The position numbers and the translations under genes are program-made. The notes beneath the pieces were generated by a model. The model saw nothing but the letters and a program-made list of their open reading frames with translations. It had not been told where the DNA came from and made no database searches. From Planctomycetota bacterium (lineage in GTDB: Bacteria > Planctomycetota > UBA1135 > GCA-002748355), in the NCBI GenBank assembly GCA_020638795.1, contig JACKHW010000005.1, positions 218,023 through 282,022 of the forward strand: a DNA stretch of 64,000 bases, written 5' to 3'. Below, one piece after another: positions 19,546 to 32,794 of this stretch. Numbering within the stretch: the first letter of the stretch is position 1; each line of letters starts with the position of its first letter.

Positions 19546-20688
19546 ATGCGAACGACTCTTCAATCGCTCCTCGCCGTCACTGCGCTGACCGGTCTCGCCA
19601 ACGCGCAGTTCAGCCTCAGCGAAATCCTGATCAACCCCCCCGGCAACGACGACGGCTACGAGGCCATCGAGATCCGCGGCGCCGCGAACGCGGCCCTGAC
19701 GGGGTACTACATCCTCGCGATCGAAGGCGACGGCACGAATGCCGGCACCGTCGACACCGTCATCAACCTCGGCGCCTACAGCACGGGATCCAACGGCCTG
19801 TTGCTCATGCGCGACAGCTCGACGATCGTGCTCAAGCCGGCTCCCGCGGCGGCGACGACAGTCGCGGTCGACGCGGCTGCTTTCACGCCCGACATCGAGA
19901 ACGGCACGATCACGATCGTCCTCGGCTTCGGAACGGCTCCGACCGTGTCGGTCGACCTCGACGCCAACAATGACGGCGTGCTCGACAACGGCATTCCCGG
20001 TTTCACGACGGTGGACGCCGTCGCGTGGACCGACGGCGGTGCGAGCGACTTCATGTATGCCGGCGCTCTCGGCGGCTTCGATCAGCCGAACACGCATACG
20101 TTCACGCCCGACGCGGCCTATCGCATCTATGACGAGAACGGCAAGCCATGGTGCTGGACGTTCGCGGACGTCCTCACGTCGGCGACCGCGCCGGATGGAC
20201 CGTTCACGTTCGACTTCGTCGGCTTCGATTTCTCCGGCGGCCTCGCCGAGAGCTTCGGCCCGCAGCAGCTCGACCTCGGCAATATCAACGGCCGTCTTCA
20301 GTTCTGCACCGACTACTACGGCATCAGCACGGCCAACGGCGGCACCCAGACGATGCTTCTCGACGCTGGCTCGATCAACGCGAGCGGCTTCGCCCTGGTC
20401 GTCGGTAGCCTCTCGGGCACGAAGCCCGGCATCGCGCTCGGCTCCCTGACGATCCCCGTCAACTTCGACCCGTACACGTCGCTTCTCCTCAACGCGCCGA
20501 ACACGCTCGTCAACCCGTCGGTCGGCCTGCTCGACGCACAGGGCCGCATGACGTCGAAGTTCGCGCTTCCCCCCGCGTCCCCCGCCACGATCGGCATGAC
20601 GTTCAACCACGCAGCCGTGATCCTCGACAAGACGTTCTCGACCTTCAAAGCGGTCACGAACCCGACGACGCTCTTCATCCAAGCCTGA
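19546..20688 (+). CDS. Secreted lamin-tail-domain (LTD) protein
   Basis: Signal peptide is MRTTLQSLLAVTALTGLANA|QFS. LTD motif is LSEILINPPGNDDGYEAIEIRGAANAALTGYYILAIEGDG. The C-terminal ~120 aa weakly resemble the shared module. Confidence 0.7.
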   Translation: MRTTLQSLLAVTALTGLANAQFSLSEILINPPGNDDGYEAIEIRGAANAALTGYYILAIEGDGTNAGTVDTVINLGAYSTGSNGLLLMRDSSTIVLKPAPAAATTVAVDAAAFTPDIENGTITIVLGFGTAPTVSVDLDANNDGVLDNGIPGFTTVDAVAWTDGGASDFMYAGALGGFDQPNTHTFTPDAAYRIYDENGKPWCWTFADVLTSATAPDGPFTFDFVGFDFSGGLAESFGPQQLDLGNINGRLQFCTDYYGISTANGGTQTMLLDAGSINASGFALVVGSLSGTKPGIALGSLTIPVNFDPYTSLLLNAPNTLVNPSVGLLDAQGRMTSKFALPPASPATIGMTFNHAAVILDKTFSTFKAVTNPTTLFIQA

Positions 20689-20874
20689 CCCGCCCCGCGC
20701 GAAACGCGCGCGCGAAAACGTGCCGGGGTCAAAACCCCGTACTTCTGACGTCGTGGATCGCGCGCTCGGTTCCGGGGTGTCGTGGCGCTGAGGCTTGGTA
20801 CGGGTGGCTTGCCCCCTTGCGTTCTCGGGGACTTGTCGCCACTGTCTCGCTGCGCGCTTGGGAGCGAGGCGAGG

Positions 20875-22338
20875 ATGCAGCACAACATCACGGCTGACCA
20901 GCTCAGGTCTCCGCATGCGATTCGTTGCGAAGCGGGATCGTTCGAACCGGCTCGCCACTACTATCCGCGCACGCTCAATGCGCAGCTGCACGCTCTCGTG
21001 GGCTTCTTCCTGCGACTGTCGATCCCGCGCGTCGTCAGCCGCTACTGCCACCTCAACCCGCGGGTCGACCCTGCGCGCCTCACCGAGCTTCTGACGTCAG
21101 GCGCGAAGCATCTGCGTTGGGCAGGAGCGGACCTCTTCCACGTCACGACCGTGGACGGCGATCGCCGCATGATCGTCATCGAGACCAACTCGTGCCCGTC
21201 GGGCAACAAATCGATGCCGCTCGTGCACGACGACCAAGAACAGGGCGGCTACCGCACCCTGATCGAAGGTGCGTTCGTCCCCGCCATGCACCGCCGCGGC
21301 CTCCCGCGCGGCGATCTCGCGGTCCTCTACGACAAGAACCACATGGAGTGCTCCGGCTACGCGGCGACTCTCGCCGACGTGACCGGAGAACCGGTATGGC
21401 TCGTGCCGTTCGCGGAAGACCACACCGACGCACCGGCTCGATTCACGGACGGCCTGCTCGAAGTCCGAGACGAATACGGGAACTGGACTCCGATTCGGGC
21501 CGCCCTCCGCTACGTCACGCAAAAGCCTTGGAATCGAATCCCGATCCAGACCAAGACGCTGATCTTCAATCCGGTCATCGCGTGTCTCGCCGGCGGCCGC
21601 AACAAGCTCGTGGCCTCGAAGGCCTATGACTTCTTCAACACGTCGCTCGAGGAGAGCGGACTCGAGATTCGGACACCCGAGACGATTCGCGATGCGATGA
21701 AAGAAGAGGTGCCATTCTGGGTCCAGCGTTTCGGCGGCCACGCAGTCGTGAAGGTCCCCTACTCCAACGCGGGCCAAGGCGTCTTCACGATCACCAATCG
21801 TGACGAGCTCGAAGCGTTCATGGAGACCGAGCTTCCGTACGAGAAGTACGTCGTCCAGAGCCTCATCGGCAACCGACGTTGGAGCTCGCAAGGTCGCCGC
21901 GGACGGCTCTACCAGGTCGGCACGATGCCGAACAAAGCGGGCGACATCTTCGTCGCCGACGTCCGCATGATGATCGCTTCGACCGAACGCGGCTTTCGCC
22001 CGGTCGCGATCTACGGACGGCGTGCTCGCGTTCCATTGTCCGACACCCTCGACACCGGGAGTTCTTGGGACGTCCTCGGAACCAACCTCTCGACGAAGCT
22101 CGGGGATGGCGCGTGGGACAGCGATGACGCACGCTTGATGCTGATGGATCGAAAGGACTTCAACCAACTCGGCATCGGCATCGACGAACTCATCGACGGC
22201 TACATCCAAACGGTACTGTCGACGATCGCGATCGACCAACTGGCCGATCAACTACTGACGCAGAAGGGCAGATTGCGTCGGAAACTCTTCCGGTCGCTCG
22301 ACGACGATCCCGCACTGCTCGACGAAATCCTCGGTTGA
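20875..22338 (+). CDS. ATP-grasp-like amidoligase (family unassigned, motif order appears permuted)
   Basis: ATG at 20875. ATP-grasp-like blocks are FNPVIACLAGGRNKLVASKAY, HAVVKVPYSNAGQGVF, YVVQSLIG and ADVRMMIAS...AIYGRRA. An ExN-type block, MIVIETNSCPSG, lies near the N-terminus rather than the C-terminus. Confidence 0.6.
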   Translation: MQHNITADQLRSPHAIRCEAGSFEPARHYYPRTLNAQLHALVGFFLRLSIPRVVSRYCHLNPRVDPARLTELLTSGAKHLRWAGADLFHVTTVDGDRRMIVIETNSCPSGNKSMPLVHDDQEQGGYRTLIEGAFVPAMHRRGLPRGDLAVLYDKNHMECSGYAATLADVTGEPVWLVPFAEDHTDAPARFTDGLLEVRDEYGNWTPIRAALRYVTQKPWNRIPIQTKTLIFNPVIACLAGGRNKLVASKAYDFFNTSLEESGLEIRTPETIRDAMKEEVPFWVQRFGGHAVVKVPYSNAGQGVFTITNRDELEAFMETELPYEKYVVQSLIGNRRWSSQGRRGRLYQVGTMPNKAGDIFVADVRMMIASTERGFRPVAIYGRRARVPLSDTLDTGSSWDVLGTNLSTKLGDGAWDSDDARLMLMDRKDFNQLGIGIDELIDGYIQTVLSTIAIDQLADQLLTQKGRLRRKLFRSLDDDPALLDEILG

Positions 22339-22341
22339 TCC

Positions 22342-23379
22342 ATGAACGCGTTCTCGACTTCCACGATTCCGACCATCGACAACCTCGACATCTCGAGCCT
22401 CGAGCGCGGTAGCGTCCATCGATTTTGGGTGACCTTGGGCGAGAACGGTCTCGGTCGCCCCATCGTCGTGCCGGTACTCGTCGCGCACGGTCGCCGCGAA
22501 GGCCCTGTGGTCGGTGTGACCGCAGCACTCCACGGAAACGAACTCAACGGCATCCCGACGATCCATCGTCTCTTCCAAACGCTCGACCCCGATGAGATCA
22601 AAGGGTCGGTCGTCGGCGTCCCGGTTGTCAACTCGCCCGGCTATCTACTCAATCAACGCGAGTTCAATGACGACTCCGACCTCAACCGTCGCTTCCCAGG
22701 GCGTGCAGGTGGCAATACGGGCCAGGTCTATGCCCATCGCTTCTTGCACAGGATCGCAACCCGATTCGAGTACTTGATCGACCTGCACACGGCGAGCTTC
22801 GGTCGTGTCAACAGCCTCTACGTGCGCGCCGATATGACCAACAAAGTCACGGCCACGATGGCGCGGCTCGTCAACCCACACATCATCGTGCACAACAAAG
22901 GCGGCGATGGAACCCTGCGAAGCGCAGCCGAAGATCACGGCATCCACGCGATCACGATCGAGATCGGCGACCCGCAGCTCTTCCAGCAAAGCCTGATTCG
23001 GTCCTCGAGGAAGGGCATCCTCGCCGTCCTCGACCACCTCGACGTGTTCGACGACGAAGTCGAGCACACGTTCGAACCCGCCATCGAGTGCGTCAGCTCC
23101 TTTTGGATCTACGCTGACCATGGCGGCATCCTCACCGTGCAACCCCCACTCGGAAAGCGCATCGAACGCGGTTCGCAGATCGCGACGCTCACGAATTTGT
23201 TCGGTGATGTCATCTGCTCCTATACCGCGCCGGAAGATGGCGTCGTGATCGGGAAGAGCACCAACCCCGTCGCGCAGACAGGTGCTCGGATCCTGCACTT
23301 GGGTCGCATCGGACAGATCGACGGTACATCGCGCCGCGAAGAAGCCGACCGTGAAGAGGCCAACAAACAAGAGAGCTGA
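22342..23379 (+). CDS. Succinylglutamate desuccinylase/aspartoacylase (AstE/AspA, M14-like) family zinc hydrolase
   Basis: 345 aa. Zinc-ligand motifs are AALHGNELNG and LIDLHTAS. It starts 3 nt after the upstream stop. Confidence 0.85.
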   Translation: MNAFSTSTIPTIDNLDISSLERGSVHRFWVTLGENGLGRPIVVPVLVAHGRREGPVVGVTAALHGNELNGIPTIHRLFQTLDPDEIKGSVVGVPVVNSPGYLLNQREFNDDSDLNRRFPGRAGGNTGQVYAHRFLHRIATRFEYLIDLHTASFGRVNSLYVRADMTNKVTATMARLVNPHIIVHNKGGDGTLRSAAEDHGIHAITIEIGDPQLFQQSLIRSSRKGILAVLDHLDVFDDEVEHTFEPAIECVSSFWIYADHGGILTVQPPLGKRIERGSQIATLTNLFGDVICSYTAPEDGVVIGKSTNPVAQTGARILHLGRIGQIDGTSRREEADREEANKQES

Positions 23380-23391
23380 CGAACGAACCCG

Positions 23392-24045
23392 ATGACGTGC
23401 GGCGACGGACGGCAAATCGAAGGCATACTCCCGCCGTCCTGTGCGGTGTTCATGGCGCCCTTGGCCGTACCGGGGAGCCGCGCGGCCGCCCGTACCGCGG
23501 GACGGACCTTGGCAGCGAACGCACTTGACGAGCTCGGGCACGACGAACCCGGCATCGAGATCCCAACCGGTGAACGCGGAGCTCCGGTCTGGCCCGCCGG
23601 GTTCACGGGTTCCATCTCGCATACGAAGAAGCGCGTCATCGTCGCGATCGGTCGCCTGACCGACCATGCGTCCATCGGCATTGACATCGAAGAGCAGAGT
23701 CGAAACGTCTCGATGAAGATCCTGCCACGCATCGCCACGCCGCGAGAACGCGCCTGGATCGAGCATGGCATCGACGACGCACTCCGGGCTCCGCGCGAGC
23801 GTCTACTCGCCGTGTTCTCGTCGAAGGAAGCCATCTTCAAAGCGCTATGGCCGCTCTGGCGTCGAGAACTCGGATTTCACGATGCGATACTCGTTCGCAC
23901 CGCGGATGGATTCGAAGCCAGCCTGAATCCAGGAATCGCACGATCAATGACGCCGGTGATCCCACGGTTGGAGATCCAGGTCACCCATGCGGATGGCGCG
24001 ATCGTTTCCGCCATCCACGTGCCGCGCGTGGATCAAATCCCGTAG
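23392..24045 (+). CDS. 4'-phosphopantetheinyl transferase (EntD/Sfp type)
   Basis: 217 aa. Motifs are PVWPAGFTGSISHT, IGIDIEE and FSSKEAIFKALW. It starts 12 nt after the upstream stop. Confidence 0.8.
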   Translation: MTCGDGRQIEGILPPSCAVFMAPLAVPGSRAAARTAGRTLAANALDELGHDEPGIEIPTGERGAPVWPAGFTGSISHTKKRVIVAIGRLTDHASIGIDIEEQSRNVSMKILPRIATPRERAWIEHGIDDALRAPRERLLAVFSSKEAIFKALWPLWRRELGFHDAILVRTADGFEASLNPGIARSMTPVIPRLEIQVTHADGAIVSAIHVPRVDQIP

Positions 24046-25088
24046 GCCGTCGGGCAAGCGCTGACCGAGGGCCCGGTACCGCTCGTCGACGTCGGCGTCG
24101 TGCCGTAGATTCGCTTGACGGTCACGGCCTGCGTCGAAGCCTGCTGCGGCGCGGAGACGAGCTGTCCGTTGGAGAAGACGAGCGGCTTTGTCGCGGACGT
24201 CACGTCGAGCGAGAGCACCTGCGTGTAGAGCACGACCTGCGTATAGCTCGAGTTCCACGGAGCCTGGATGCCGATCGTCGTCGGAAGGAAGCCATTCGCA
24301 TCGGTAGCTCCGAGCCCCACGAGCAGGATCGGATTGACGTGCAAGACGCCGCATGCGTTCGGAAGTTGGATGTTGGGATCGCTCGCACCAACGAGCAAGA
24401 CGATCGGCGCCGCCGACGGTCCGTTCGTCACTTTCACACCGAGTTCGATATTGGTCGCATCAGCGCGGAATGCCGTATCACTCCGCATGGCTCCGTTCTT
24501 CGTTGCACAACCACCTCCGAGATCGGAAGGGTAGTCTCCGTACGTATGCGCGATGTTGGTGCTCTGCCAATCTTGCGGCATCGCATTGAGGGCGTTGTTG
24601 CTGTTGATGACGTCCCAGACGATCGCATCCGTCCGGTTGTAGATGAACGGCGAATCCAACTTGACCTGGAAGTCGAACTCTTGCGGAGTCTTGCTCGAGG
24701 CGGTGGTCCAATCCGGGAGACTGACCGCCTTCTTCGTGAACACCGTGCGTGGCGTGTCCTTGTAGTTGGACGCCCACGTGTTGGACACAGTCGCGAAATC
24801 GCTGTGTGCCATGACGATCTCTAGAGTCACCGTCTTGTTCGCAGAACCGGTGCCGAGGCCATCGCGTCGCCACGCGAGGTAGCGAATCGCCGGCAGCGGC
24901 AAGCCAACGAGACTGTTGTCGACCTGCTGCACGCGCGTGTCCGCGCTGTAGTTGCCGAGCATGATGTTCGACGAGCTGTTGCCCTCGAAGAACTCGATCC
25001 CACGCGGGCTGGCGAACTCGAGCGTCTGCGAACAGACTCCGGACGAAACGACGACGAGTGACGAAAGAGCGAGAAGAGCAATACGCAC
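24033..25088 (-). CDS. Secreted protein, full-length member of the local paralogue family (two-Cys module near the C-terminus)
   Basis: Signal peptide is MRIALLALSSLVVVSSGVCS|QTL. The N-terminal domain shares a conserved block with the other full-length paralogues (...VQQVDNS...IRYLAWR...TLEIVMAHS...). The module runs GGGCAT...NACGVLHVNP... Confidence 0.7.
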   Translation of the reverse strand: MRIALLALSSLVVVSSGVCSQTLEFASPRGIEFFEGNSSSNIMLGNYSADTRVQQVDNSLVGLPLPAIRYLAWRRDGLGTGSANKTVTLEIVMAHSDFATVSNTWASNYKDTPRTVFTKKAVSLPDWTTASSKTPQEFDFQVKLDSPFIYNRTDAIVWDVINSNNALNAMPQDWQSTNIAHTYGDYPSDLGGGCATKNGAMRSDTAFRADATNIELGVKVTNGPSAAPIVLLVGASDPNIQLPNACGVLHVNPILLVGLGATDANGFLPTTIGIQAPWNSSYTQVVLYTQVLSLDVTSATKPLVFSNGQLVSAPQQASTQAVTVKRIYGTTPTSTSGTGPSVSACPTAYGI

Positions 25089-25948: not shown

Positions 25949-26045
25949 GGCGCCATCATAGGTGGCGTCGGCGGAAGTCTCGCAACCTGCTCCCTTCCGC
26001 ACGTGTCACTCCTCGCCCCTGTCCGATTCTTTGGTATCCCATACT

Positions 26046-27569
26046 GTGAAACACACTGCTTCTCTCACAGCGGCATCCGCATTGCTGCTCACCTTGCCCG
26101 CAACCGCACAACTCAATCCCCCGAACCCGACACCCGCGGTATCGCCGCGCGCCAACTGGGTGCGGTTGACCAACATCCCCGGCGAGCCCACGCAGCGCCG
26201 TGACAACCCCGGTGCAGCGAGCCAAGACAAGCTCTACGTCTTCGGCGGTCGCGACGGGAACGCCAACAGCAACACGCTCAACGCGCTCTACGAGTTCGAC
26301 GGCAAGACTTGGGTGATCAAGACTTCCGAAGGTGCAACGGGTTCGCCCCCGACCCGCGGTGGCGCATGCATCTGTTGGGATTTCTCGCGCAACAAGCTCG
26401 TCGTCTTCGGCGGCGACACCGGCGGCACCACGCCGACGTTGCTCGGCGACACCTGGGAATGGGATCCGACGACCAACGCGTGGACACAGATCACCGGTGC
26501 GGGACCTGCCGCACGCCGCTGGGCTGCGATGGCGTACGACCCGTTGCGTCGTGGCATCGTCCTGTTCGGTGGCGAAACCGTCCTCAACGGCGCGCCGGTC
26601 AACGACACGTGGTTCTATTCGAACGGTGTTTGGGCTCTGCAGTCGACGGCGACGTCGCCGCCTGCACGCCGACAACATAGCATGATGACCCGGCAGAGCT
26701 ACCGCGACGTACTCCTCGTCGCGGGCCAGGATTCGACCGCGACGCCGCAAGTGCGCTTCCTCGACGTCTGGCGTTGGAGCGGTGTGTCGTGGACCCAGAT
26801 CAACACCAACGGCACGCACCCGCACGGCACGACGGCCAACCAAGCGGTCTATGACGAAGCGCGTCAGCGCGTCGTCATGCAAGGCGGCCAGGGGATCTCC
26901 GTTCCGAACAGCGCAGGCGGAGGCCAGTACGGCGACCTCTACGGTGGTTCGCCATCGACGTGGTGCAGCGAGTTCGACAGCTTGACCAACAAGTGGATCC
27001 TCTACGGGCAATCCGGTTTCAATACCGCCGACCCGGCAATCGGTCGCGTCAGCCGTTACTTCGGAGGCTACGTCGCGTCGCTCGAAAAGGTCTACAAGGT
27101 CAGCGGGCAAGACCCGTCCGGCCTTGCGGGCTACCGCTTCACGGCCGAGTATCAGGCCACGCCGATCGCGTCGACCACAACTCTGGGTTCGGGCTGCCAG
27201 AGCATCTCGCTCGATGCCACGTCCCCCGAAGATCGCCCGTGGCTCGGCCGCACACTGACGACGACCGCAACCGGCCTCAAGACCGGCTCGATCTCGCTCG
27301 GCCTGCTCGGCTTCCAGTCGTACAACATTCCGCTCAGCTCGATCTTCAGCTTCGGCGGCACGGGCTGCACGCTCTACAGCGGCTTCGACCTCCTCGTCGT
27401 GTTGCCTAACGTCCAAGGAAAGGCGACGTTCGCTCTGCCACTCCCGGCAGACTCGCAACTCGCTGGCGCGAACTTCTACGAACAAGTGCTCGAGTTCACG
27501 CTCTCCGGCTCGTCGTTCACGGGCGCAGCCTCGTCGAACGCGCTGACGCTGAACGCCGGCGCTCTCTGA
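26046..27569 (+). CDS. Secreted Kelch-repeat beta-propeller protein with C-terminal two-Cys module
   Basis: There are several Kelch-like blades (FGGRDGNANSNTLNALYEFDGKTW, FGGDTGG...GDTWEWDPTTNAW, FGGETVLNG...NDTWFY). Signal peptide is ...ASALLLTLPATA|QLN. The start is uncertain: GTG at 26046, or TTG at 26031. Confidence 0.8.
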   Translation: MKHTASLTAASALLLTLPATAQLNPPNPTPAVSPRANWVRLTNIPGEPTQRRDNPGAASQDKLYVFGGRDGNANSNTLNALYEFDGKTWVIKTSEGATGSPPTRGGACICWDFSRNKLVVFGGDTGGTTPTLLGDTWEWDPTTNAWTQITGAGPAARRWAAMAYDPLRRGIVLFGGETVLNGAPVNDTWFYSNGVWALQSTATSPPARRQHSMMTRQSYRDVLLVAGQDSTATPQVRFLDVWRWSGVSWTQINTNGTHPHGTTANQAVYDEARQRVVMQGGQGISVPNSAGGGQYGDLYGGSPSTWCSEFDSLTNKWILYGQSGFNTADPAIGRVSRYFGGYVASLEKVYKVSGQDPSGLAGYRFTAEYQATPIASTTTLGSGCQSISLDATSPEDRPWLGRTLTTTATGLKTGSISLGLLGFQSYNIPLSSIFSFGGTGCTLYSGFDLLVVLPNVQGKATFALPLPADSQLAGANFYEQVLEFTLSGSSFTGAASSNALTLNAGAL

Positions 27570-27772: not shown

Positions 27773-28780
27773 ATGCAACTCTCACTCTCTCCATATTCTC
27801 TCTGCGCTTTCGCACTGGGTTCCCTCGTCGTTCTCGCAGCCGATGTCGGTGCGCAGCAGTCGATCCCCACTGGCTTCCTGACGGACGCCGGAGCCTCGTA
27901 CACCAACTACCCGTTCGGTCTCGCGAACTCGCGGGTGCAGTATCTCTACGACGCGTCGTTGATCGTTCCGCCTGCGCTACCGATCAATCAACTCGAAGTC
28001 CGCGCACACCCGAGCCTCACAGCGACGGCACACACAGCGACGTTCGAGATTCGTATCTCGACTTCGCAGTCCGCTTGGGACTCGGCATCGACGACGTTCG
28101 CAACCAATAGCGGGAACGACGAAGTCGTCACGTTCACGCCGAAGAGCGTCAACCTTCCCGGTTATGCATCCTCGACGACGCCCAACTGGCCGACCGTGTT
28201 CAAGCTCGACAAGCCATTCGTCTACATCAAGGCGAAGGGGAATCTCTTGATCGACTACCTGAAGTCGAATGGGCAATCGACCACGTATCCGTCGAACGTG
28301 GTCTGGAACAAGACAGTTGCATCCAACACGATCGGCACGCCGTGCAAGACGGCCAACCAGTCGTTCACCGGCGGCGCTGCGATTTCGACGACGTCGACCC
28401 TCATGTTCTCGCTGACGGGAGGTCCGGCGAACGGAGCCGCTGCGCAGATCCTCTCGTTCCAGAAGCTCCCGCAGTCGGTCCCTCTGCCCAATGGCGGCTG
28501 CCCGCTGCACGTCGTCCCGTTCCTCGTCTTCGGCGTGGCAACCAGTGCGACGGGGACAGCGAGCGTGACGTATCCAACCCCGGTCGGCACGCGCAGCCTG
28601 ACGGGTCCGGTCGTCTTCAGCCAGTGGGTCGGCCTCGGCGCAACTTGGGACTCGAGCCCCGCGATCGAAGTGACGATCGGCGGCTACTTGCCCTGCTGCC
28701 GTATCTACAACACGTCGAGTGCGACCGCGACGACCGGCAGCGTGCAGATCGGTGCAGGCATCGTGCACAAGGTTCTTTGA
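27773..28780 (+). CDS. Secreted protein, full-length member of the local paralogue family
   Basis: ATG follows GGAGAG. Signal peptide is ...LVVLAADVGA|QQS. By eye roughly 40% identical to the 60274..61272 product (GFLxxxGSxxTxYPxG...RxQYLYDxS...TTFAxNxGxxEVVxFT...). Confidence 0.75.
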   Translation: MQLSLSPYSLCAFALGSLVVLAADVGAQQSIPTGFLTDAGASYTNYPFGLANSRVQYLYDASLIVPPALPINQLEVRAHPSLTATAHTATFEIRISTSQSAWDSASTTFATNSGNDEVVTFTPKSVNLPGYASSTTPNWPTVFKLDKPFVYIKAKGNLLIDYLKSNGQSTTYPSNVVWNKTVASNTIGTPCKTANQSFTGGAAISTTSTLMFSLTGGPANGAAAQILSFQKLPQSVPLPNGGCPLHVVPFLVFGVATSATGTASVTYPTPVGTRSLTGPVVFSQWVGLGATWDSSPAIEVTIGGYLPCCRIYNTSSATATTGSVQIGAGIVHKVL

Positions 28781-28784
28781 GCTG

Positions 28785-29915
28785 TCAGGGCAGGTCGCGC
28801 TTCCCGCCGAGCCATCCGAGACGGCGGAACCAAAGAAGCATCAAGAGCGCGATGATGCCGAGCACGACGAGAAAGCCGACGTAGGCATACGGCGTCTCGA
28901 GTTCGGGCATGTTGCCGGGCAGCTTCGTGTCGAAGTTCATTCCGTACAGCCCGGTCAGGAACATCATCGGAATAAAGATCGTCGAGATGACGGTCAGGAC
29001 GCGCATCGTCTCGTTCATCCCGTGACTCAGCGTCGAGAGGTAGAGGTCGAGTAGCGACGCGACGATTTCTCGGTAGCCCTCGATCATGTCGAGCACTTGG
29101 ACGACGTGGTCGTGGACGTCGCGCAGGTAGACCTTCGTCATCTCTTCGAAGCTGCCGTCATCACTGCGGATCAGGCTCTGCACCATCTCGCGCATCGGCC
29201 AGCACGAACGCCGCAACTGCGTGAGTTCGCGCTTCATCCTGAGGATCTCGACGACCTGGCTCTGATGCACGCGCTCGAGGACTTGCTCTTCGAGTTCTTC
29301 CAGTGCTTCGCCGTATGTTTCGAGCACGGGGAAATACGCATCGACACACGCGTCGAGCAACGCATAGACGAGATAATCGGGGCCATAGCGTCGAATCCGT
29401 CCACGTCCCGTTCGAATCCGGGCGCGCACGGGCTCGAACACATCGCCGACGCGCTCCTGGAACGTGATCACCGATTGGCCACCGAGCCAGATGCCGAGCT
29501 GTTCGGTCTCGATCCCTTCCGAGTCCGGACGGAGCATGCGGCAGACGAGGAAGCGACCTTCGTCGTACTCGTCGGTCTTGGCGCGCTGGCCCGTGTGCAC
29601 GATGTCCTCGAGCACGAGCGGGTGGATCCCCGCTCGCGACGCGAGCTCTTCGAGCAGCCGGGTGTTGGCGAGGCCCGACGCATCGATCCACACGACTCCC
29701 CCACCATCGTTCAGCGGCAACTCGTCAACGGAATGAGACTCGTCTTGGTGCTCGACGAAGGCATGGGCGTCGTAGCGAACCCATCGCAGCGCCGTCGGCT
29801 CCGCGGACTCGTCCACGACGACGGTCCCGGGCATGCTGCCCGGCGCCGGACGACGTCCGCGCCCGAAGAGTCGCGCGAGCGAAGTCTGCCGCAGCCTGCG
29901 CGCGCTGAACGCCAT
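28785..29915 (-). CDS. corA: CorA family magnesium/cobalt transporter
   Basis: C-terminal TM pair carries the YGMNF signature (LTGLYGMNFDTKLPG). I chose the start at ATG 29915, just downstream of the fbp stop at 29923. The track start at 30047 would overlap fbp. Confidence 0.9.
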   Translation of the reverse strand: MAFSARRLRQTSLARLFGRGRRPAPGSMPGTVVVDESAEPTALRWVRYDAHAFVEHQDESHSVDELPLNDGGGVVWIDASGLANTRLLEELASRAGIHPLVLEDIVHTGQRAKTDEYDEGRFLVCRMLRPDSEGIETEQLGIWLGGQSVITFQERVGDVFEPVRARIRTGRGRIRRYGPDYLVYALLDACVDAYFPVLETYGEALEELEEQVLERVHQSQVVEILRMKRELTQLRRSCWPMREMVQSLIRSDDGSFEEMTKVYLRDVHDHVVQVLDMIEGYREIVASLLDLYLSTLSHGMNETMRVLTVISTIFIPMMFLTGLYGMNFDTKLPGNMPELETPYAYVGFLVVLGIIALLMLLWFRRLGWLGGKRDLP

Positions 29916-29922
29916 CGACGCG

Positions 29923-30918
29923 TCAGCGCAGCGACTCGACGGCGTACTCGACGTCGGCACGCGACCCGACGAAGAGCGGGCAGCGTTCATGGAGTTCCTT
30001 GGGATCCAACTCGAGCGAGCGGACAAGTCCATCGCTTGCCGCACCACCGGCGCGCTCCGCGATCTTCGCGAGCGGGGCCGCCTCGTAGAGGTAGCGCAGC
30101 TTTCCTCGCGGTCGGTCCGTCAGGCCCGGGTAGAGGAAGATTCCACCCTGCAAGAGCGTGCGATGGAAGTCGGCAACGAGCGCACCTGTGTAGCGCGCAG
30201 CTCGCTTGCCGACCGGCGCGCGCCCTTGACGGAACGACGCGACGAGTTCCTTGGTCTTGTCGTCCCACTTCGACTCGTTGGATTCGTTGACGCTGTACGA
30301 GCCACCACCCTCGGGCATGCGAATGTCGGAATGCGTGAGGAAGAACTCGCCGATCGACCGGTCGAGCGTGAATCCGTTCACCGGACCGTCTTCTCCTGCG
30401 GTGTAGACGAAGACCGTCGCGGGGCCGTAGAGGATGTAGCCGGCGGCAACTTGCGCATCGCCGCGCTTGAGGAAGTCACGCTCGTGCACCGGTACATCGA
30501 TGCTCTCGCGCTGATGCACCGAGAAGATCGAACCGAGCGATCCGTTGATGTCGATGTTGCCGGACCCATCGAGGGGATCGAACAAGACCATGTATTTCCC
30601 ACTCTGCGATTCCTCATCGTCGAATGCGTGGATCTTCGCGCGCTCCTCGGATGCGACCGCACAGACGGAACCGAGCGACTCGAACACGCGAACGAACGTG
30701 TGATCAGCCAGCTCATCGAGCTTCTGCACGCGCTCGCCCTGCACGTTGACGATGCCGGTCTCGCCATGCTCTCCGAGGAAGCCCGCATTGAGCAGGCGCT
30801 GCGCGACCATACGCCCCGCGAGACTGAGGCGTGCGAGGATGCGCGATAGTTCACCGGTGGCTCCCGGATGGAGACGCTCGGTCGTTCGAATGTGCTCGAT
30901 GAGTGTGGGGCGTGTCAT
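29923..30918 (-). CDS. fbp: Class 1 fructose-1,6-bisphosphatase
   Basis: 331 aa. Typical FBPase I blocks are FDPLDGSGNIDINGSLGSIF, YGPATVFVYT and GKLRYLYEAAPLAKIAERAGG. Confidence 0.92.
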   Translation of the reverse strand: MTRPTLIEHIRTTERLHPGATGELSRILARLSLAGRMVAQRLLNAGFLGEHGETGIVNVQGERVQKLDELADHTFVRVFESLGSVCAVASEERAKIHAFDDEESQSGKYMVLFDPLDGSGNIDINGSLGSIFSVHQRESIDVPVHERDFLKRGDAQVAAGYILYGPATVFVYTAGEDGPVNGFTLDRSIGEFFLTHSDIRMPEGGGSYSVNESNESKWDDKTKELVASFRQGRAPVGKRAARYTGALVADFHRTLLQGGIFLYPGLTDRPRGKLRYLYEAAPLAKIAERAGGAASDGLVRSLELDPKELHERCPLFVGSRADVEYAVESLR

Positions 30919-30929
30919 TGCGGTGCGGA

Positions 30930-32585
30930 TCAGTGGCCTTCGGAGAACCAGTCTTCCTGCTTGCCGATCTGCTTGGGACGCGCGTCATCGTTCGCGACCT
31001 CGTAGCCGATCGTGAACGCGAGTCGCGCGATCCGCTCGATCTTGTCGTACTCGAGCTTCTCGGGCGTGTCGCTCGGCATGTGGTAGTCCGCGTGCTCGTC
31101 GTCGCAGAAGAACACGACCGGAATACCCTCCTTGGCGAAGTTCCAGTGATCGCTGCGCTGATAGAACTTGTCGCCGTTCGTCATTTTCAGATCGAACGAC
31201 GCGCCGAGCTCTGCCGCACGACGCGCGAGCGTCGAGTAGTCCTTGTTGCGGAACGTCGGCGTGAGTGCGACCGAATCGGACGGCACCTTGTCCGTGCTCC
31301 TGCCGAGCATGTCCATGTTGATGTCGGCGACGATCTTGTCGATCGGCCACGTCGGATGACTCGCGAAGTGCTCCGAGCCCCACAGGCCGAGCTCTTCTCC
31401 CGACACCGCGAGGAACATGATGCTGCGGCGCGGGCGCGCGTCGCCCTCGAGTTTGGAGAACGCCTCGGCGATCTCGAGCACGGTGGACGAACCACTTGCA
31501 TTGTCATCGGCGCCGTTGAACACACCACCGTTGGCCGTCAGGCCGAGGTGGTCCATGTGGCACGAGAAGACGACCAGCTCGTTCTTGAGCTTCGGATCGC
31601 GGCCTTCGAGGACGGCGACGATGTTCTTCGCGTCGAGGTCCTCGGAATAAGGCTTGGCTTTGATACGGACTTGGGCCTTGGACTTCTTGCCGACGAGCTG
31701 CTCGTCACTCCAATCCGACAAACCGTCGATTCCGAGCACTTTGAGAAGCGCTGCCGCATCCTTGCCATCGACGGCGACCGTCGGGACTTTCGGAACCTGA
31801 TCGCCGAACATCGGGCGTCCCCGTCCGCGCGCGATCTGCGGCTTGCCGGGATACGACGTCGACATGTTGGCTGCCGACAGGAAGCTCACACTGAGTTCCT
31901 TCGAAACGAGAATGCAGCCACGGGCGCCTCCGGCGTCCGCGTTCTTCGCGATCGCGCGGACCTCGGCCATCAAGCGGAAGCCCTCACCGAACGCCGCCAT
32001 CGTGCTGCGCGGTTCGCGATCGGACTCGGGCATGACACAAACCGCGATCGCGCCTTGGAGAGCCATCTCGCGCGGATTCGTCGATCCACACCAGACGAGA
32101 CGCCCCTGGACCTTGACCTCCTGCTTCTTGCGCGTGTTGACGAACCAAGCGCCATACTCGCAGATGCGCTTGCCCGCGGCGTCGAAGATGCCCGTCTGCT
32201 CCGGCACGAGTCCGGTCGCGCGAACCTCGTAGGTCTGCTCGTACCCGCGCTTCCCACCCACGGTATCACCCCATGGTTCGAGCCCGAGGGACTCGAAGTG
32301 CTTCCGGAAGTACTCGGCGGCCTTCAGCTGTCCGGCCGTGCCGGTCAGTCGCCCTTCGTACTCGTCGGACGCCAGCGTCATCGCGTGAGTCTTCAAGTCG
32401 GCTGCCGTGATCGTCGCGCGAGCCGTCGGCATCGGCCCGATGCTGGCCAAGGTGGGCTTCGAGCCATCGGGCTTCGGCGGAGCCTCGACTTGGCCTTGCG
32501 CGACAGAAGGCACGACCACCATGGTCGCGAGTACGATCCGTGCGATTCCCCGTGGGAACGTCGAAAACAGGCTTGGCGCGTTCAT
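30930..32585 (-). CDS. Secreted M28 family aminopeptidase with PA domain
   Basis: ATG at 32585 gives signal peptide ...IVLATMVVVPSVA|QGQ. M28 metal-site blocks are SCHMDHLG, GADDNASGSS, SGEELGLWGS and SDHWNF. Confidence 0.85.
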   Translation of the reverse strand: MNAPSLFSTFPRGIARIVLATMVVVPSVAQGQVEAPPKPDGSKPTLASIGPMPTARATITAADLKTHAMTLASDEYEGRLTGTAGQLKAAEYFRKHFESLGLEPWGDTVGGKRGYEQTYEVRATGLVPEQTGIFDAAGKRICEYGAWFVNTRKKQEVKVQGRLVWCGSTNPREMALQGAIAVCVMPESDREPRSTMAAFGEGFRLMAEVRAIAKNADAGGARGCILVSKELSVSFLSAANMSTSYPGKPQIARGRGRPMFGDQVPKVPTVAVDGKDAAALLKVLGIDGLSDWSDEQLVGKKSKAQVRIKAKPYSEDLDAKNIVAVLEGRDPKLKNELVVFSCHMDHLGLTANGGVFNGADDNASGSSTVLEIAEAFSKLEGDARPRRSIMFLAVSGEELGLWGSEHFASHPTWPIDKIVADINMDMLGRSTDKVPSDSVALTPTFRNKDYSTLARRAAELGASFDLKMTNGDKFYQRSDHWNFAKEGIPVVFFCDDEHADYHMPSDTPEKLEYDKIERIARLAFTIGYEVANDDARPKQIGKQEDWFSEGH

Positions 32586-32794
32586 GAATTTGGCTCCGCT
32601 GGGCATCCTTGCGAGCTGGGCATCCTTACACTTTGGCATGCGTGCCCTCTGGCATGCGTGCGATCGGCAGAGGAGGCGCACCTACGATACGCCCCACCCG
32701 ACCGAACGCCATCGAGCAGCCCCGGAGAAACCGAGGTCGTGCTCCGACGGACACCCGACGCACGATGCCACCGCGGGCTCCGCGCCCGCCGCAG

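Follow-up and report, generated by a model that had tools for sequence, protein, structure and literature searches.

A ligase paired with a hydrolase of the same bond is known from the glutathionylspermidine (Gsp) synthetase/amidase of Escherichia coli. Cyanophycin synthetase and CphZ are likewise a precedent for a ligase beside a hydrolase of its own product; CphZ cleaves dipeptides derived from cyanophycin, the product of an ATP-dependent ligase, and AstE/AspA enzymes share the fold of M14 carboxypeptidases (PMC9974463). Neighborhoods that combine an amidoligase with a peptidase are an established concept (Iyer et al. 2009, cited in PMC3597751). Here, we examine a locus of three co-directional genes in a 64,000-nt stretch (hereafter, the window) of contig JACKHW010000005.1 from a Planctomycetota bacterium (assembly GCA_020638795.1). 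Gene 1 encodes an ATP-grasp ligase that is circularly permuted and belongs to an unannotated family, gene 2 encodes a zinc amidohydrolase of the AstE/AspA type, and gene 3 encodes an Sfp-type 4′-phosphopantetheinyl transferase (PPTase) (table 1). Genes 1 and 2 are part of a conserved unit to which gene 3 does not belong.

Table 1. Positions in the window of the three genes, of segments of the gene 1 protein, and of downstream open reading frames (ORFs)
Feature	Position	Strand	Description
Shine-Dalgarno-like purine-rich stretch GGGAGCGAGGCGAGG	20860..20874	+	Abuts the ATG of gene 1 (sequence inspection)
Gene 1	20875..22338	+	487 aa; circularly permuted ATP-grasp-type ligase, unannotated family
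Gene 1, beta-hairpin, residues 84-110	21124..21204	+	G84-x-D86 and E103-T-N105-S-C-P-S-G; metal/phosphate-ligand element that is C-terminal in classical enzymes
Gene 1, residues 145-410	21307..22104	+	Pre-ATP-grasp domain, central ATP-binding domain, first part of C-domain
Gene 1, helical tail, residues 426-487	22150..22335	+	Family-specific; holds conserved D428-F-N430
Gene 2	22342..23379	+	345 aa; AstE/AspA-type zinc amidohydrolase
Gene 3	23392..24045	+	217 aa; Sfp-type PPTase
CorA-like ORF	28785-30047	-	Pfam-labeled counterpart in L006
FBPase-like ORF	29923-30918	-	Pfam-labeled counterpart in L006
M28-peptidase-like ORF	30930-32681	-	Pfam-labeled counterpart in L006

The protein encoded by gene 1 has the fold of the ATP-grasp superfamily and is genuinely circularly permuted. 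Its AlphaFold (AF2) model, built on an alignment of the family (predicted local distance difference test score [pLDDT] of 86.4; predicted template modeling score [pTM] of 0.90), has the three-domain ATP-grasp fold, and the 50 matches listed by Foldseek against the PDB, 29 of them at E ≤ 1e-3, are all ATP-grasp enzymes. The top match is 3n6x (“putative glutathionylspermidine synthase”, Mfla_0391; E 4.5e-8 over 424 columns). Human glutathione synthetase (GS) is matched at E 6e-8 (8fbz) and 3e-7 (2hgs), human and yeast GS together range from E 6e-8 to 9e-7 over 418–447 columns, and trypanothione synthetase 2vpm is at rank 10. The alignments to 3n6x and GS are nearly full-length and colinear with gene 1. 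Human and yeast GS are the classical circularly permuted ATP-grasp enzymes, the human one reportedly since the work of Polekhina and coauthors in 1999. Classical RimK, synapsin, Ddl, and LysX rank lower (E 1e-5 or weaker), with alignments that for RimK and LysX cover only ∼290 columns. The model is thus closest to permuted enzymes and not to those with the classical ATP-grasp order.

Profile alignment recovers the same order of segments. We used HHalign to compare a 67-sequence profile of the gene 1 family with a 333-column classical GshB-like profile made from the classical ligase genes that adjoin gene 1 homologs. Residues 145–410 of gene 1 correspond to GshB-like positions 5–251 (P 1e-7), and residues 60–140 correspond to the C-terminal positions 260–327 (P 0.003). 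Within the latter, W-a-G84-a-D86-L-f falls on G-v-D-t-l, and v-I-E103-t-N105-S-C-P-S-G falls on L-E-i-N-t-S-x-G-G. In the AF2 model, D86, E103, and N105 are carried by a hairpin with strands at 82–92 and 97–105, so that the metal-ligand hairpin is N-terminal to the pre-ATP-grasp and central domains. The landmarks in residues 145–410 are K293, S297–G302, Q328, D362-x-R364, and T403-N404, the last in a loop that is the counterpart of the “S-N-x-x-x-G-G” loop. The full catalytic set of gene 1 aligns to the matching GshB-like positions, and D86, E103, N105, K293, D362, R364, and N404, as well as S297–G302, Q328, and T403, are invariant in 32 homologs. Because these residues are invariant and the profile alignments are significant, the likeness of motifs is not due to chance.

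The original prediction, made from the sequence, had placed a block resembling the metal-binding element ahead of blocks resembling the central ATP-binding region and had read this order as that of a permuted ATP-grasp ligase. This central claim stands because the profile alignments, the secondary structure of the model, and the invariant catalytic residues agree. The order of the blocks was right, whereas their residue numbers were not (off by 12–41 in the central blocks). The blocks start at residues 99 (MIVIETNSCPSG), 243 (NKLVASKAY), 291 (VVKVPYSNAGQGVF), and 361 (ADVRMMIAS) rather than at ∼100, ∼255, ∼332, and ∼391.

Searches of Pfam, NCBIfam, and the sequences of the PDB gave no significant match to gene 1, whether run with the single sequence, with a 32-sequence profile, or with each member separately. 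Only RimK and MptN match below threshold, at residues 249–332; scores are 13 bits for RimK (cutoff of 21) and 14 bits for TIGR00768 (rimK_fam; cutoff of 143). None of the 32 members matches Pfam CP_ATPgrasp_1, CP_ATPgrasp_2, or GSP_synth, and none matches GSH_synth_ATP at E ≤ 10. The profile search proposed with the original prediction, against ATP-grasp families including permuted ones, came back without a Pfam family. Since the test of each named family failed, we file gene 1 only as “ATP-grasp, circularly permuted” and not as a glutathione synthetase, GspS, or RimK.

The family is nevertheless large. More than 3,700 of 8,000 candidates scored are homologs of gene 1, all labeled “hypothetical” and none with a Pfam domain. 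At 50% identity, the family counts 909 clusters (E ≤ 1e-3), and species-representative genomes hold at least 560 matches. Identity to gene 1 of the window is 55–70% in Myxococcota, Saprospiraceae and other Bacteroidota, Rhodothermales, and Chloroflexota, and at this level the family spans the phyla Planctomycetota, Myxococcota, Bacteroidota, and Rhodothermota. Homologs that are 42–59% identical over aligned segments are present in the eukaryotes Podila, Rhizoclosmatium, Fonticula, Naegleria, Reticulomyxa, Cyanidium, Rotaria, Trichinella, and Trichuris. Those of Podila and Naegleria are interrupted, with a genomic range that exceeds the coding length, and are set among ordinary eukaryotic genes, so that they are not contamination. 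Gene models of Trichinella pseudospiralis (P0150) and Trichuris suis (P0153) fuse the ligase homolog to CTF18 (AAA/RFC-like). These joins are the only N-terminal fusions found in long homologs and are probably adjacent genes that were merged by annotation. A search of the literature found no description of the family; coverage in Iyer et al. 2009 was not judged. A paper on CDC123/R2K was considered as an account of the family and rejected, as it concerns a different, nonpermuted clade. Gene 1 represents a new and widely distributed family of ATP-grasp ligases, for which both the permutation of the fold and the logic of the genes have precedents.

Linkage to a hydrolase gene is a conserved feature of the family. 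Across 80 species-representative loci, an AstE/AspA homolog is within 3 kb of the ligase gene in 57, on the same strand in 45. Among the 55 loci whose flanks extend 3 kb or more in both directions, the number is 41. The AstE homologs at most loci are 48–62% identical to gene 2, and the arrangement is repeated on two further long metagenome contigs. In 31 of the 80 loci, a classical GSH-S_ATP/RimK-type ATP-grasp gene is also within 3 kb. This recurrent third partner, which went unnoticed in the original prediction, sits between or beside the ligase and AstE genes and scores under the cutoffs for glutathione synthase. Start and stop codons of the ligase and its partners overlap by 4 nt in L001, L008, L047, and L071. 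A motif scan of the window identified no second ATP-grasp gene, so the partner is absent there. By contrast with this breadth, just one locus (L011, where the ligase is 95% identical) has a PPTase gene no more than 5 kb from that of the ligase. The neighbor counts thus support the expectation of a ligase and AstE/AspA hydrolase that are conserved as a pair, fitting the making and removal of an amide, and contradict that of a co-conserved trio. What is conserved is the ligase together with the AstE-type hydrolase, joined at some loci by a RimK/GshB-type ligase.

Among the eukaryotic loci searched, a linked partner was found only in Naegleria. In Naegleria fowleri, an intronless gene for a RimK-type ligase lies 450 bp downstream of the gene 1 homolog and has the same orientation. 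Together with this gene, the one-intron ligase homolog (L094, 7440-10586; L095 is near-identical) mirrors the bacterial pair of ligases. In Podila, Rhizoclosmatium, Cyanidium, and Rotaria, no linked partner is present within 10 kb of the homolog. Batrachochytrium dendrobatidis is reported to have acquired a “succinylglutamate desuccinylase” (48% identity) and a “glutathione synthetase” from bacteria by horizontal gene transfer (PMC5005798). Rhizoclosmatium, which has a gene 1 homolog, is another chytrid.

Gene 2 matches AstE_AspA_cat (Pfam PF24827; E 2.8e-34, 118.8 bits against a cutoff of 25). Its scores against the NCBIfam equivalogs DoeB (73.9 bits; cutoff of 402.7), aspartoacylase (28.6; cutoff of 180), and AstE (17.7; cutoff of 305.65) are far too low, and an assignment as a DoeB, AstE, or AspA equivalog was rejected. 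The closest solved relatives are 3cdx and 3na6, which are uncharacterized structural-genomics proteins, and DoeB 6twm. The zinc triad H64/E67/H149 and the catalytic E207 (general base) are kept at ≥95% in 61 orthologs, as are R106 and N115, which are part of a clamp for the C-terminal carboxylate, and the further arginines R155, R162, R193, and R316. An N-R clamp motif for the carboxylate is common to carboxypeptidase A and CphZ (PMC9974463). Gene 2 carries the conserved arginines and not the acidic D-E pair with which CphZ accommodates Arg/Lys; no CphZ chain is among the listed PDB sequence matches to gene 2 at E ≤ 0.01, and the two were not aligned directly. On these observations, the idea that gene 2 is a CphZ finds no support. 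R193 aligns with an Asp of DoeB, whose substrate has a basic side chain. Because an Arg takes the place of this Asp, the pocket of gene 2 around R193 is predicted from the aligned sequences to fit an acidic residue.

We suggest that genes 1 and 2 form a module that makes and breaks an acidic, Glu- or Asp-terminated, small peptide-like amide product, a reading to which we give an even chance. The fold, the permutation, the conservation of residues, and the linkage of the genes are shown computationally, whereas enzymatic activity and a product that is acidic and small are inferred from them. That the two act on one product is made probable by their being inherited together. By the general mechanism of ATP-grasp enzymes, gene 1 would convert a carboxylate with ATP to an acyl-phosphate and join it to an amine. 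Along its chain, the metal/phosphate hairpin (G84-x-D86, E103-x-N105) is succeeded by the pre-ATP-grasp domain, the central domain (with K293, the glycine-rich loop 297–302, and Q328 as the hinge), the strand of D362-x-R364, the loop of T403-N404, and lastly the helical tail. Gene 2 would cleave an N-acyl-amino-acid bond of the type made by gene 1 and release probably Glu or Asp, and the ligase and hydrolase together would set the level of an acidic, amino-acid-terminated amide. In the about 40% of genomes that have it, the RimK/GshB-type ligase may add a further residue in a second ligation step. The arginine-rich site of gene 2, R193 in place of the Asp of DoeB, and 13 arginines of gene 1 that are invariant in 32 homologs all argue that the product would be acidic.

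Several features favor a small metabolite. To our knowledge, characterized AstE/AspA relatives all act on small N-acyl amino acids or dipeptides, and the enzymes that gene 1 most resembles in structure join small molecules. Nor is there a conserved peptide or carrier ORF in the vicinity; a search around the cluster for a conserved small ORF (a LysW-like carrier, a precursor peptide, or an acidic tail) found only shadow ORFs. Genes for MscS channels are near the ligase in 14 of 80 loci, polyamine-synthesis genes are within 10 kb in nine, and CorA homologs are near it in seven, these last in phyla other than that of the window. The recurrence of these neighbors is a further reason to favor a small metabolite, and collectively they hint at a link to osmotic or ionic balance. 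Rather than being bound to a carrier protein, the product would most likely be a small peptide-like metabolite, for example an osmolyte, a counter-ion, or a storage compound. The position of MscS varies: the gene directly follows the ligase in L053, L054, L083, and L084 and follows AstE in L033, L039, and L067, and in Lewinellaceae and Phaeodactylibacter, it occupies the place of AstE.

Other observations weigh against a small acidic metabolite as the common product of genes 1 and 2. The extreme conservation of gene 1 (55–70% across phyla and 42–59% to eukaryotes) suits an enzyme that acts on a protein or forms a complex at least equally well. The argument from the R193 pocket rests on an alignment of sequences, not on structure. 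Of the 55 fully flanked loci, 14 are without an AstE gene nearby; the hydrolase is thus not obligatory. The neighbor counts are also phylogenetically nonindependent. Lastly, neighbors that suggest protein modification recur, namely the RimK-type ligase, a SET-domain protein, and a Ser/Thr kinase with a PP2C phosphatase.

The main rival is reversible tagging of proteins, which we consider rather unlikely. The permuted ligase, with or without the RimK-type ligase, would add Glu or Asp to a conserved protein, at its C-terminus or a side chain, and the AstE-like enzyme would trim the tag, by analogy with the action of RimK on ribosomal protein S6 and with tubulin and its TTL/TTLL ligases and CCP carboxypeptidases. 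RimK/GshB-type ligases are recurrent partners, including in Naegleria, SET-domain (11 of 80 loci) and Ser/Thr kinase plus PP2C neighbors would fit, and the very high conservation of a family common to bacteria and eukaryotes is as expected for an enzyme with a protein substrate. The M14 carboxypeptidase fold of AstE/AspA enzymes is also compatible with trimming (PMC9974463). However, no candidate target or small ORF with an acidic tail is nearby. In addition, the characterized AstE/AspA members act on small molecules, and the structural relatives of the ligase, the synthetases of glutathione, glutathionylspermidine, and trypanothione, ligate small molecules. As to the neighbors themselves, the SET-domain protein is ∼200 aa in length, is near the ligase/AstE/GshB-like cluster (e.g. 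L046, 7944-8564; L023, 13704-14360), is 50% identical between Bacteroidota and Myxococcota, and is absent from the window. In loci of the Polyangia type (L002, L014, L019, L020, L022, and L023), genes for a GshB-like ligase, AstE, PP2C phosphatase, and Ser/Thr kinase are lined up in a single row, all in one direction and convergent with the ligase gene.

A broader proposal, which we regard as doubtful, is that gene 1 founds an independently permuted branch of RimK/GshB and, with its RimK- and AstE-type partners, writes and erases a new Glu/Asp-based modification. If true, the modification would target a conserved protein or a ubiquitous small molecule and would span several bacterial phyla as well as Naegleria, chytrids, Mortierellomycota, Fonticula, a red alga, a foraminifer, rotifers, and trichinellid nematodes.

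Conjugation of polyamines is a less probable alternative still. Here, the ligase would join a carboxylate, for instance that of a glutamyl compound or peptide, to an amine of a polyamine, and the hydrolase would have the role of Gsp amidase. The structural matches to 3n6x (rank 1) and trypanothione synthetase 2vpm (rank 10) are in line with this, as are the polyamine-synthesis genes within 10 kb in nine loci, which in L057 are co-directional and directly downstream. Yet the link concerns ∼11% of loci, mostly of related Bacteroidota, and the window has no polyamine genes near the cluster. Moreover, the leaving amine of an AstE/AspA-type enzyme must bear a free alpha-carboxylate, a group that polyamines lack, and the arginine-rich sites in both proteins favor anionic over cationic substrates. 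The loci in question are of Bacteroidota, Rhodothermales, and Kofleriaceae (L047, L063, L057, L070, L050, L067, L077, L079, and L009), and the genes encode arginine decarboxylase, agmatinase, carboxynorspermidine dehydrogenase and decarboxylase, and a deoxyhypusine-synthase-like protein. In L057, it is the AstE gene that the polyamine genes follow.

It is very improbable that gene 1 is not permuted at all but an ordinary ATP-grasp enzyme with an extra N-terminal domain, a coincidental ETN block, and D428-x-N430 as its metal site. D428 and N430 are indeed invariant. Comparison of the gene 1 family with profiles of eukaryotic GS is also not significant by HHalign and partly misaligned (E 0.24–0.49; E 0.43 for a 4-sequence profile of three sequences plus the human one, verified to be identical to 2HGS). 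But D428-F-N430 is inside a predicted helix and is not aligned to the classical ATP-grasp profile, which argues that it is not the missing ExN strand. Beyond the T403-N404 loop, the AF2 model has only short strands and four helices (426–432, 436–460, 469–475, and 479–486) and no hairpin. The last 88 residues (400–487) have no counterpart in the classical GshB-like profile (HHalign P 0.42), whereas it is residues 60–140 that match the classical C-terminal GxD…ExN hairpin, and the best structural matches are permuted enzymes across nearly the whole length. The absence of an ExN block at the C-terminus, as originally predicted, is therefore upheld, and gene 1 is best described as permuted.

Gene 3 is a PPTase by its matches to 4PPT_N (E 8.2e-14) and ACPS (E 4.8e-12), both above cutoffs; the Npt, PptT, and EntD models match far below theirs. 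Apart from L011, a PPTase gene adjoins the ligase only in L006 and L007, both metagenomic contigs of a close relative. No carrier-protein-like DSL motif is present in a plausible ORF of the window by motif scan only, and there is no nonribosomal peptide synthetase (NRPS) or polyketide synthase (PKS) in the window nor any such Pfam family within ±10 kb. The original prediction had inferred a carrier-protein step from the PPTase, which its linkage in a single locus of 80 does not support. With the PPTase outside the conserved module, there is no need to account for the lack of a carrier, NRPS, or PKS, and a false lead toward carrier-protein chemistry is removed. A single pathway of all three genes, with the PPTase priming a carrier protein for the making of an amide-linked product, as first proposed, is scarcely credible despite the tight packing of the genes and the same gene order in three related Planctomycetota contigs, given that further metagenome loci with the ligase–AstE pattern are, like all but one of the 80, without a nearby PPTase, that the PPTase diverges much faster (45% identity between L006 and the window, compared with 79% for the ligase and 86% for AstE), that the window has none of the required machinery (carrier protein, NRPS, or PKS), and that the carriers on which Sfp-type PPTases act commonly have their genes elsewhere. 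The PPTase is best seen as a lineage-specific neighbor, whose role would be general and unrelated.

In the window, genes 1 and 2 are separated by 3 nt and genes 2 and 3 by 12 nt. These gaps, the coordinates, and the domain identities of genes 2 and 3 are all as originally predicted. Gene 3 is probably co-transcribed here with genes 1 and 2; scans for riboswitches, promoters, and terminators around the three genes found none. The ATG of gene 1 is internal to an ORF at 20782..22338. We place the start at 20875 because the purine-rich stretch, the N-termini of homologs, which share the same starting methionine, and an identical public gene call (Planctomycetes metagenome-assembled genome contig, GCA_020638775.1) agree.

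The surroundings of the three genes are shared in part with relatives. Two paralogous secreted proteins without a Pfam match flank the genes (24033-25088 on the minus strand and 27773-28780 on the plus strand), and the paralogs are also kept in the related contigs L006, L007, and L011. Two more flanking proteins (19546-20688 and 25962-27569, both on the plus strand) have N-termini that are like signal peptides. The 3′ ends of the PPTase gene and the convergent gene at 24033-25088 overlap by 13 nt (24033-24045). Farther downstream, CorA-like, FBPase-like, and M28-peptidase-like ORFs are in the same order in the window and L006.

A family that is labeled “hypothetical” everywhere and is not covered by Pfam or NCBIfam can now be placed among the permuted ATP-grasp ligases. 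With this assignment and its true partners, the AstE-type hydrolase and the RimK/GshB-type ligase, an anonymous gene becomes part of a testable pair of enzymes that points to an acidic peptide-like metabolite or a protein mark. The family is also a further, and possibly independent, case of circular permutation within the ATP-grasp fold.

Known systems each share some of these features. Eukaryotic GS (human 2HGS and yeast 1M0W) is similar in size to gene 1 and has the same permuted order of segments, with E-x-N-x-x-S in the first third and the ATP lysine and glycine-rich loop in the last third. However, the two have no detectable similarity in sequence or profile, and their partner genes differ. 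In sequence, gene 1 stands nearer to classical GshB/RimK (P 1e-7), and it has its own His/Arg-rich N-terminal helices and 60-residue helical tail. The GshB/RimK clade is the only one with significant profile similarity to gene 1, and the catalytic motifs are held in common, but its members have the classical order with GxD…ExN at the C-terminus, whereas gene 1 is permuted and below every curated threshold. 3N6X, a presumed member of Pfam CP_ATPgrasp_2, and the synthetases of glutathionylspermidine and trypanothione resemble gene 1 in structure (Foldseek ranks 1 and 10). In Gsp systems, the amidase is a CHAP domain, whereas here the hydrolase is a separate AstE/AspA zinc enzyme. With AstE, AspA, DoeB, and CphZ, gene 2 shares the domain, the zinc triad, the catalytic Glu, and the N-R carboxylate clamp, but it has an Arg where DoeB has an Asp and is the equivalog of no characterized member. 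Lastly, Iyer, Abhiman, Burroughs, and Aravind reportedly described in 2009 ATP-grasp amidoligases beside peptidases, proposed to produce peptide metabolites or protein tags. The pair of genes 1 and 2 follows the same general logic of ligase plus peptidase, but the permuted systems in that work are said to pair with Alpha-E and transglutaminase domains and not with AstE.

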